DNA from: Escherichia coli | Lineage (GTDB): Bacteria; Pseudomonadota; Gammaproteobacteria; Enterobacterales; Enterobacteriaceae | Assembly (NCBI RefSeq): GCF_003018255.1 | Contig: NZ_CP027440.1 | DNA length: 64,000 nucleotides | Reading direction: 5' to 3' (one strand) | Shown: in pieces, positions 16,639-29,320 of the stretch | Position numbering within the stretch: position 1 is the first letter of the stretch | Layout: each line of letters begins with the position of its first letter | The notes under the pieces: generated by a model | What the model was told of the DNA's origin: nothing | Databases searched by the model: none | What the model saw: the letters and a program-made list of their open reading frames with translations, nothing else | Made by a program: the position numbers and the translations under genes

Positions 16639-20703
<4,065 letters not shown>

Positions 20704-26528: not shown

Positions 26529-26806
26529 TTTCCCCTCTCCCACAAGCAATAAATCAAAATTCCCAAAGCTGCGGGATTGTACTGCCTGGCACAGAGGATT
26601 CAATGAGCGAAAAAAGGGATCTAGTCACTTATTGTAACTAAATACTTCTTAAATAATTAAACGCCGAAAAAATAAACATACTTTATCGATACACACAAAA
26701 ATAATAATAAGTGCAGTTATCATCGCAAAAGAGATTACTGTCACTTTCACATATTTCTGAGTTACCGTATTCTCATGGTTTCTTTTTATTTATAAGGAAT
26801 ACCCCT

Positions 26807-27232
26807 GTGCGACAACGGACTATTGTATGCCCTTTGATTCAAAATGATGGTGCTTATTTGCTGTGTAAAATGGCCGACGATCGCGGCGTTTTCCCCGGTC
26901 AATGGGCGCTTTCGGGTGGCGGCGTAGAGCCTGGCGAACGAATTGAAGAGGCACTACGCCGCGAAATTCGCGAAGAACTGGGAGAACAGCTGCTTTTGAC
27001 AGAAATCACGCCGTGGACCTTCAGCGATGATATTCGCACCAAGACGTATGCAGATGGTCGCAAGGAAGAGATTTATATGATTTACCTGATTTTTGACTGC
27101 GTTTCTGCCAACCGAGAAGTGAAAATAAACGAAGAGTTTCAGGACTACGCGTGGGTAAAACCTGAAGATCTGGCGCACTATGATTTGAATGTCGCCACCC
27201 GAAAAACGTTACGTTTGAAAGGTCTTCTGTAA
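26807..27232 (+). CDS. nudI: Nudix nucleoside-triphosphatase NudI
   Basis: Nudix box [24 protein letters not shown]; the 141-aa product requires a GTG start at 26807 ([10 protein letters not shown]); the ORF-track 5' extension to 26711 has no support. Confidence 0.8.
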
Positions 27233-27270
27233 CAATGATGACAGCCATTACTGGCTGTCAGATTGAAAAT

Positions 27271-27873
27271 TTAGTGGTTAACGAATTCCCCATCCAGATA
27301 AACTTTGCCTTTTTCCACATGCATGACTAAACCATCCAGATAATCAGGTTTAAATGTCGCATCACGCTTATCTTTAGCAATATATGTCAGGCAATGATTA
27401 TGGGTGAAAATAACGATATTTTTATCAGGCGCTTTGCTTTGTAAGTCCTTAATTGCACTATAAATCTCATTACCGCACTGAAGAAGTCGTTTATCTACCG
27501 TCAGCTTTTTACCCGCTGAAAACCAGGTCGCCGACTGAATGGTCCGGACGGTATTACTGGAATAAAGATCGAAATCAGGGATATCAGCACTAAAAGCGTT
27601 GCCCAGTTCACGGGCATCCTGGGTACCTTTAACCGTAATACCTGTTTTATCTGACAAGCATTGGTTGGTTGAACGATCGCAACGTTCAGCATGGCGAAAC
27701 AAAACGACAACCGGATGCTGCTGTGCCAGTCTGGCCAGCGTTTTATTGTCGATACGTGGCAAACCATTGCTACTCCAGGCGGCATGAGTACCCAGTCCGG
27801 CAATTGCAGCGAGCGCCAGTAAAATGATGAAATATTTTTTTGACTTCAACGAAGAGCGGCAAAAAGCTAACAC
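27271..27873 (-). CDS. ais: Ais (aluminium-inducible, histidine-phosphatase-like) protein
   Basis: ORF 27271-27930; probable GTG start at 27873 giving 200 aa with a signal peptide; histidine phosphatase motif RHAERCD. Confidence 0.75.
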
Positions 27874-28065
27874 GTAAACTCCACCTATAGACAAGCGCAA
27901 CCAGACAATTACCGTGAAATTGAGCGACATTTCTGGCGATAATTAGCAGTTGGTGTAATATTAAAAATCCTGCGATGCCGGCAAAATGCCTCAAAATTTT
28001 GCCAAATGCAAAGCCTAAATAAGAAAAAATATAAAAATTTCAATATTTACGTCTAATATTAGTTT

Positions 28066-28082
28066 CTTAAGGTTAAGTTAAT
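28066..28082. promoter_or_regulatory. PmrA(BasR)-box-like direct repeat CTTAAG-GTTAA-GTTAAT upstream of arnB
   Basis: Matches the YTTAAK-N5-YTTAAK PmrA box; lies about 100 bp upstream of the arnB start in the ais/arnB divergent region. Confidence 0.45.
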
Positions 28083-28180
28083 ATTCTATCCTTAAAATTT
28101 TGCTCCAAATGGCAAAATATACACAACACTCTTTATAGCAAATATAAGTGGACAGGTATTCAATGGCGGAAGGAAAAGCA

Positions 28181-29320
28181 ATGTCAGAATTTTTGCCTTT
28201 TTCGCGACCAGCAATGGGCGTGGAGGAACTCGCTGCAGTTAAAGAGGTTCTCGAATCCGGTTGGATCACAACCGGTCCGAAGAATCAGGCGCTTGAACAA
28301 GCCTTTTGCCAGTTGACGGGAAATCAGCATGCCATCGCGGTCAGTTCAGCCACCGCCGGAATGCATATCACGCTAATGGCGTTGGAAATTGGCAAGGGCG
28401 ATGAAGTGATTACGCCTTCCCTGACCTGGGTTTCAACCCTCAATATGATTTCCTTGTTGGATGCAACGCCGGTAATGGTGGATGTCGACCACGATACGCT
28501 GATGGTCACGCCTGAAGCGATCGAGTCAGCCATTACGCCACGCACTAAAGCCATCATTCCGGTGCATTATGCCGGTGCGCCAGCAGATATTGACGCCATT
28601 CGCGCCATTGGCGAACGTTACGGCATCGCAGTTATCGAAGATGCTGCCCATGCCGTCGGTACGTATTACAAAGGCCGACATATTGGCGCAAAAGGTACCG
28701 CTATTTTTTCGTTTCACGCCATCAAAAATATTACCTGTGCGGAAGGTGGCCTGATTGTTACAGATAATGAAAACCTTGCCCGCCAGCTACGGATGCTAAA
28801 ATTTCACGGTCTGGGTGTCGATGCCTATGACAGACAAACCTGGGGCCGTGCACCGCAAGCTGAAGTCTTAACGCCGGGCTATAAGTATAATCTGACCGAT
28901 ATTAACGCCGCGATTGCCCTGACCCAGTTAGCCAAATTAGAGCACCTCAACACCCGTCGGCGCGAAATTGCTCTGCAATATCAACAAGCACTGGCAGCTC
29001 TCCCTTTTCAGCCATTAAGCCTTCCCGCCTGGCCGCACGTTCACGCCTGGCATCTGTTTATTATTCGTGTCGATGAACAACGTTGTGGTATCAGTCGCGA
29101 TGCGTTGATGGAAGCGTTAAAAGAAAGAGGCATTGGTACCGGGTTACATTTCCGCGCCGCTCACACACAAAAATATTATCGCGAGCGTTTTCCCACGCTG
29201 TCGTTACCGAATACCGAATGGAATAGCGAACGCATCTGTTCGTTGCCGCTGTTCCCGGATATGACCACCGCCGATGCCGACCGCGTCATCACAGCCCTTC
29301 AGCAACTCGCAGGACAATAA
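28181..29320 (+). CDS. arnB: UDP-4-amino-4-deoxy-L-arabinose--oxoglutarate aminotransferase (PLP)
   Basis: ORF 28148-29320; start [23 protein letters not shown] at 28181 preferred (28148 is an alternative); DegT/ArnB aminotransferase family. Confidence 0.93.

Follow-up and report, generated by a model that had tools for sequence, protein, structure and literature searches.

The closest described counterparts of the two genes studied here are those of Escherichia coli K-12. K-12 nudI (yfaO, b2251, NP_416754.1) encodes a 141-aa protein. K-12 ais (b2252, NP_416755.1), whose Salmonella counterpart is pmrG, encodes a 200-aa protein. About 14% of E. coli genes start with GTG (bioRxiv 10.1101/063800). 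In reporters, GUG initiates less well than AUG, with canonical non-AUG starts reaching 10-100% of the AUG level (bioRxiv 10.1101/063800). Among prokaryotes, start codons are under weak selection, which favours AUG and acts most strongly in highly expressed genes, and related genomes switch between GTG and ATG (Belinky et al., PMC5622118). ‘Start-stop’ sites have also been described in E. coli; ribosomes bind them, their effect on expression is slight, and they had Shine-Dalgarno-like sequences (bioRxiv 10.1101/520783).

We analysed nudI and ais in a 64-kb stretch of E. coli chromosomal DNA, called the window below. The two genes are convergent, with nudI on the plus strand and ais on the minus strand; yfaZ lies upstream of nudI, and the arnBCADTEF operon is divergent from ais. 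Window positions 26600-28150 (1,551 bases) were 100% identical to E. coli strain 2017.09.02CC, and nearly all of the 5,426 complete E. coli genomes in the search matched them at 98-99.7% identity. Outside this region, the window and the matching RefSeq record are not base-for-base identical. In the matching RefSeq record, window positions 19110-20295, between glpC and yfaU, hold a transposase gene of the ISNCY family next to a truncated hypothetical pseudogene.

The RefSeq/PGAP annotation of strain 2017.09.02CC places nudI and ais at the coordinates given in Table 1, and the K-12 MG1655 annotation agrees by length (426 nt and 603 nt). We observed GTG at 26807-26809 on the plus strand and CAC at 27871-27873, which is GTG on the minus strand. 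The reading frames that open with these codons measure 426 nt (141 aa) and 603 nt (200 aa). Longer open reading frames exist in the same frames, starting at 26711 (173 aa, nudI frame) and at 27930 (219 aa, ais frame). A preliminary description of this DNA took both of these to be ATG-initiated, which is true of 27930 but not of 26711, where the frame opens with GTG. The same description had both genes flanking a short spacer. That fits their 3′ ends, where the stop codons are 38 nt apart, and not their start codons, which lie 1,066 nt apart at the outer ends. The spacer contains a hairpin with a 9-bp stem plus outer pairs (−17 kcal/mol, z = −3.3; 0 of 200 shuffled sequences folded as well) and weak T-tracts on both strands. 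In its simplest reading it is probably a bidirectional terminator, and the spacer has no bearing on the initiation of either gene.

Table 1. Features of the nudI-ais locus (window coordinates).
Feature	Coordinates	Strand	Evidence
nudI coding sequence, 141-aa predicted Nudix hydrolase	26807..27232	+	RefSeq coordinates, NF012016 profile, PDB constructs
nudI Shine-Dalgarno sequence AAGGAA, 7 nt upstream of GTG	26794..26799	+	Duplex energy, 16 aligned sequences
nudI upstream in-frame extension, 32 codons, very probably non-coding, probable promoter	26711..26806	+	No Shine-Dalgarno sequence, stops and indel in relatives
ais (pmrG) coding sequence, 200-aa histidine-phosphatase-family protein, signal-peptide-like N-terminal segment	27271..27873	-	RefSeq coordinates, NF011945
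ais Shine-Dalgarno sequence GGTGGAG, 5 nt upstream of GTG	27879..27885	-	Duplex energy, conserved purine-rich cores
ais upstream in-frame extension, 19 codons from ATG 27930, 5′ leader, very probably non-coding	27874..27930	-	Stops and indels in relatives
Hairpin between the convergent stop codons, probable bidirectional terminator	27239..27260	.	Terminator-like match, folding

Annotation, Shine-Dalgarno pairing, orthologs and population data agree on GTG 26807 as the start of the 141-aa NudI and on GTG 27873 as the start of the 200-aa Ais, as the preliminary description had proposed. These GTG starts are already in the public annotation and are in that sense already known. The case for them is comparative and thermodynamic, and it is very consistent. 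We hold with high confidence that nudI and ais are ordinary, correctly annotated genes translated from these two codons.

We calculated the duplex energy of the 16S rRNA 3′ tail against positions −20 to −4 of each in-frame candidate start. A Shine-Dalgarno sequence was present only at GTG 26807 (AAGGAA, −6.2 kcal/mol) and at GTG 27873 (GGTGGAG, −5.9 kcal/mol), in both cases at a spacing within 5-10 nt of the GTG. The alternatives ranged from +1.9 to −3.0 kcal/mol. In the nudI frame these were GTG 26711 (+1.8 kcal/mol) and the internal ATG 26870 (+0.9 kcal/mol); in the ais frame they were ATG 27930 (+1.9 kcal/mol), TTG 27900 and TTG 27894 (both −3.0 kcal/mol), and TTG 27849 (+1.3 kcal/mol). For scale, −6 kcal/mol is reached at ~6% of random window positions.

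We compared the locus with its orthologs, using one genome per species. The scan covered 17 loci from Escherichia (several species and cryptic clades), Salmonella, Citrobacter and Intestinirhabdus, most of which have nudI and ais in the same arrangement. For both genes, conservation sets in abruptly at the Shine-Dalgarno sequence and the start codon (15-19 ortholog lineages, four genera). Upstream of the starts, relatives have in-frame stop codons and frame-shifting indels, and single-base indels occur even among Escherichia lineages. The position of the start is thus kept in the orthologs of both genes, and the upstream frame is not.

The codon aligned with the nudI start was GTG in 10 of 16 sequences and ATG in the other 6 (two Salmonella, three Citrobacter and one divergent E. 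coli lineage), always behind AAGGA. A core of AAGGA or GAAGGAG occupied the Shine-Dalgarno position in all 16. Outside Escherichia, the peptide encoded by the upstream extension was 6-19% identical to that of the window, and the first 16 codons of the gene were 81-100% identical. In-frame stops interrupt the extension at −27/−30 in Salmonella and at −72 to −105 in the other sequences except Citrobacter sedlakii, whose upstream frame was open over the 130 nt examined. Escherichia sp. E1V33 has a 1-nt indel in the extension.

Alleles in the 5,426 complete E. coli genomes were counted with exact-context 33-mers, which megablast matches only if the central base agrees. In the sequence context of the window, the nudI start was GTG in at least 2,229 genomes and ATG in at least 1,254. 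In the K-12 context it was GTG in at least 1,443 genomes and ATG in 0. Over both contexts, at least 3,672 E. coli genomes carry GTG at the nudI start and at least 1,254 (at least 23%) carry ATG, so the start codon is a common polymorphism of the species, within a 33-nt context that is otherwise identical. The ATG allele has no compensatory change in the Shine-Dalgarno sequence, and PGAP annotates the same 141-aa product from it. Because the codon varies only between GTG and ATG, both within and between species, it bears the signature of a start codon and not of an internal Val or Met. This is the same GTG/ATG switching among relatives that Belinky et al. described (PMC5622118).

We observed a different pattern for ais. 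The codon aligned with 27873 was GTG in 19 of 19 ortholog sequences, with a purine-rich Shine-Dalgarno sequence 5-8 nt upstream. The cores (GGTGGAG, GAGAGG, GTGGAA and GTGGAGAG) are related, purine-rich and conserved in all lineages. The 33-mer spanning the Shine-Dalgarno sequence and the start had GTG in 5,389 of the 5,426 E. coli genomes and ATG in 0. In E. coli E69, E. albertii, both Salmonella, Intestinirhabdus and most Citrobacter, the upstream frame is closed by a stop codon 3-30 nt before the GTG. Outside Escherichia, the extension peptide is 0-32% identical to that of the window.

The K-12 locus differs from the window in ways that account for the longer reading frames. K-12 nudI is the same gene with the same GTG start position. 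Its product differs from that of the window at few amino acids (for example, V and I in K-12 at window residues A131 and L35), and one SNP separates the two between the Shine-Dalgarno sequence and the start (C in the window, T in K-12). At −96, where the window has GTG 26711, K-12 has GTA, and no ATG, GTG or TTG occurs anywhere in its nudI extension. The 173-aa frame therefore cannot be made in K-12, and in the window it is spurious. K-12 ais has the same GTG and GGTGGAG, and its product is 99% identical to Ais of the window. Positions 27925-27930 (minus strand) read ATGTCG in the window and ATGTAG in K-12, a minimal start-stop that has no Shine-Dalgarno sequence. The TAG directly after the ATG means that the 219-aa frame cannot be made in K-12; in the window, the TCG yields a spurious 219-aa frame.

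Protein-level comparisons place the N-termini at the same codons. The NCBIfam NudI equivalog NF012016 matched over its full length (302.1 bits; cut-off 95), and its positions 1-141 aligned to residues 33-173 of the 173-aa frame, that is, from GTG 26807. The Nudix box is GX5EX7REUXEEXGU, and the NudI translation fits it except at the last position. Solved structures of the Salmonella and Klebsiella NudI orthologs matched with E = 2e-84 to 2.6e-75, and past their tag residues the PDB constructs 3OGA, 3N77 and 6DT3 open with MRQRTIV. The alignment to more distant Nudix structures begins near residue 5 of the 141-aa protein, so a later start would truncate the NudI fold. Annotation, family profiles and crystal constructs all stem from earlier gene calls and are mutually non-independent. 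By sequence, NudI is predicted to be a nucleoside triphosphatase of the Nudix family with pyrimidine (deoxy)nucleotide hydrolase activity. The internal ATG 26870 (M22) was also considered as the nudI start and was rejected: it lacks a Shine-Dalgarno sequence, and starting there would remove a segment to which the N-terminal part of other Nudix structures aligns.

For Ais, the NCBIfam subfamily profile NF011945 matched over its full length (390.6 bits; cut-off 142), and its positions 1-201 aligned to residues 20-219 of the 219-aa frame, that is, from GTG 27873. The PmrG equivalog NF052369 scored 145.4 bits, below its cut-off of 170, so E. coli Ais is filed in the subfamily and not in the PmrG equivalog. 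PF00300 is precomputed for Ais homologs, and the catalytic RH motif (FRHAERCDR) was invariant in 11 of them. The K-12 annotation labels the function ‘putative’ (LPS core heptose(II)-phosphate phosphatase). All Ais homologs open with ML(A/P/V). A basic n-region comes next, then a hydrophobic core, and a conserved A-W-S leads into the conserved mature domain. These features suggest a cleavable signal peptide, and Ais is predicted to be exported. Such cleavage would leave the same mature N-terminus for either start, and N-terminal mass spectrometry would then be uninformative about the start of ais.

Inside ais, at 27721-27738 (minus strand), near-tandem 9-bp units (CTGGCCAGA/CTGGCACAG) encode LAR-LAQ. 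ARL occurs once, twice or three times in E. coli Ais variants, which accordingly measure 200, 203 or 206 aa. This copy variation suggests replication slippage just after the predicted signal peptide.

We looked for published start-site data on both genes. Searches by gene names, b-numbers, UniProt accessions and K-12 coordinates returned no ais or nudI entry in the supplements of the TRAINSPOTTER N-terminomics, Cappable-seq and SMRT-Cappable-seq studies. The same was true of the supplements of the TetRP study (where only arnB appears), of a ribosome-signature start-site study and of a Salmonella riboproteogenomics study. The main text of a Mg-starvation Ribo-RET preprint mentions neither gene. 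We found nothing in the literature on the start sites of pmrG/ais or of nudI/yfaO/Orf141.

Taken as ordinary genes, nudI and ais would be translated as follows. Pairing of 16S rRNA with the Shine-Dalgarno sequence of AAGGAA-N7-GTG (26807, plus strand) and of GGTGGAG-N5-GTG (27873, minus strand) would position the 30S subunit, and the initiator tRNA would read GTG as fMet. The expected products are NudI, a cytoplasmic Nudix hydrolase of 141 aa, and an Ais precursor of 200 aa in which residues 1 to ~34 resemble a Sec signal peptide. The longer frames from GTG 26711 and ATG 27930 would exist only because the leader in the window strain happens to have no stop codon. In ordinary GTG-initiated bacterial genes, the GTG likewise lies 5-7 nt past the Shine-Dalgarno sequence and is read as fMet, and nothing sets nudI or ais apart from that class. 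GTG would not be a coordinated device common to the two genes: in nudI, GTG and ATG appear to be interchangeable alleles, and in ais the GTG is fixed, possibly under mild constraint.

The preliminary description had raised the possibility of weak translation by design for both genes. We consider it unlikely that GTG is kept in both to hold translation low. The lower efficiency of GUG in reporters (bioRxiv 10.1101/063800) is consistent with the idea, and so is the invariance of the ais GTG in 5,389 E. coli genomes and 19 lineages, where four-fold sites are saturated (0 of 21 invariant). For nudI, however, the idea fails, since at least 23% of E. coli genomes and 6 of the 16 lineages naturally have ATG behind an unchanged Shine-Dalgarno sequence. 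The two genes are also convergent, in separate transcription units, with no common control region. Start-codon selection is weak and falls mostly on highly expressed genes, so a GTG kept in a weakly expressed gene needs no design. We also counted GTG starts in the annotated 64-kb stretch and found 3 among 55 coding sequences (nudI, ais and menF). Two of three such genes would be neighbours by chance with a probability of ~0.11, so the pairing of nudI and ais is not remarkable.

The ais half of this idea has a version of its own, in which the GTG is actively maintained to cap the level of a periplasmic LPS-core phosphatase and the leader ATG-TAG/ATG-TCG could tune ribosome access. Its basis is that no ATG allele was seen for ais in 5,389 genomes and 19 lineages, while nudI switches freely. 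The invariance fits constraint. In the same genome set, however, 5 of 17 conserved A/G two-fold synonymous sites were also invariant (~30%), a small baseline with 2 columns in ais and 15 in nudI, and the ais GTG is a single site whose invariance is not significant. We regard active maintenance of the ais GTG as doubtful.

Much less probable is dual initiation in ais, in which ATG 27930 of the TCG allele would give a minor extended precursor and the ATG-TAG of the TAG allele would act as a start-stop element in the leader. Both alleles are common: the codon after ATG 27930 is TCG in at least 1,800 E. coli genomes and TAG in at least 1,278. ATG 27930 probably lies in the 5′ leader, judging by a TAATAT hexamer that resembles a −10 element and by a conserved motif upstream. 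As the leader is open in the window strain and in at least 1,800 others, and ATG 27930 is probably transcribed, an extended precursor could be made at a low level. Start-stop sites are also known in E. coli, but those described had Shine-Dalgarno-like sequences (bioRxiv 10.1101/520783), and ATG 27930 has none. The ATG itself is absent from most other Escherichia lineages and from all other genera.

We give very little credence to the possibility that the longest frames are real in the window strain, with a 173-aa NudI from GTG 26711 and a 219-aa Ais from ATG 27930. Both frames are open in the window, and a few database entries carry a 219-, 222- or 213-aa Ais (short ENA/Logan contigs and one nr entry). 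Against this, neither upstream start has a Shine-Dalgarno sequence, and K-12, at least 1,278 E. coli genomes and nearly all other lineages lack the extensions or have them interrupted. The extension peptides are unconserved outside Escherichia. PGAP annotates neither extension and places no feature over that of ais even in TCG-allele genomes. For nudI, a promoter-like site at 26746-26773, with a −10 element (cgTATTCT) kept in Escherichia and in four of eight Citrobacter lineages, is probably the nudI promoter. With transcription starting there, 26711 would fall outside the transcript. For E. coli as a whole species, the longest frames are contradicted. Least probable of all, to the point that we set it aside, is an Ais start at TTG 27849 (codon 9), which is in frame and would yield a tidier signal peptide (MKSKKYF, then a canonical n-region and h-region) but has no Shine-Dalgarno sequence, is TTG only in Escherichia (elsewhere GTA, ATT, TTA, TCT, TTT, GTT or ATC) and follows eight codons that are kept as protein within Escherichia.

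The region between ais and arnB held further observations. On the ais strand, a GGCATTTTGC motif at 27981-27992, ~110 nt upstream of the ais GTG, is kept in Escherichia, Salmonella and Citrobacter and may be part of the ais promoter or a regulator site. Upstream of arnB, CTTAAGGTTAAGTTAAT (28066-28082) resembles the PmrA/BasR direct-repeat box. A scan for that box (YTTAAK-N5-YTTAAK, at most 2 mismatches) showed no enrichment in the window (40 matches; 36 expected), so the pattern is unusable for placing the ais promoter. The 5′ end of arnB (28148-28183, plus strand) has nested candidate starts at GTG 28148 (longest frame), ATG 28163 and ATG 28181. ATG 28163 is the K-12 annotation (385 aa) and ATG 28181 that of PGAP (379 aa), and the tetracycline-profiling (TetRP) study lists arnB(yfbE) with ‘multiple’ starts. 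The arnB start is a more genuinely open question than the starts of nudI and ais.

Overall, our data indicate that a longest-frame track over-extends nudI and ais in the window strain and that the curated GTG starts are right. The importance of this is small beyond annotation hygiene. In the ais leader, the TCG/TAG polymorphism is common and opens or closes an upstream in-frame ATG. In nudI, the GTG and ATG alleles form a natural pair in which the effect of a start-codon switch could be measured in its native context.
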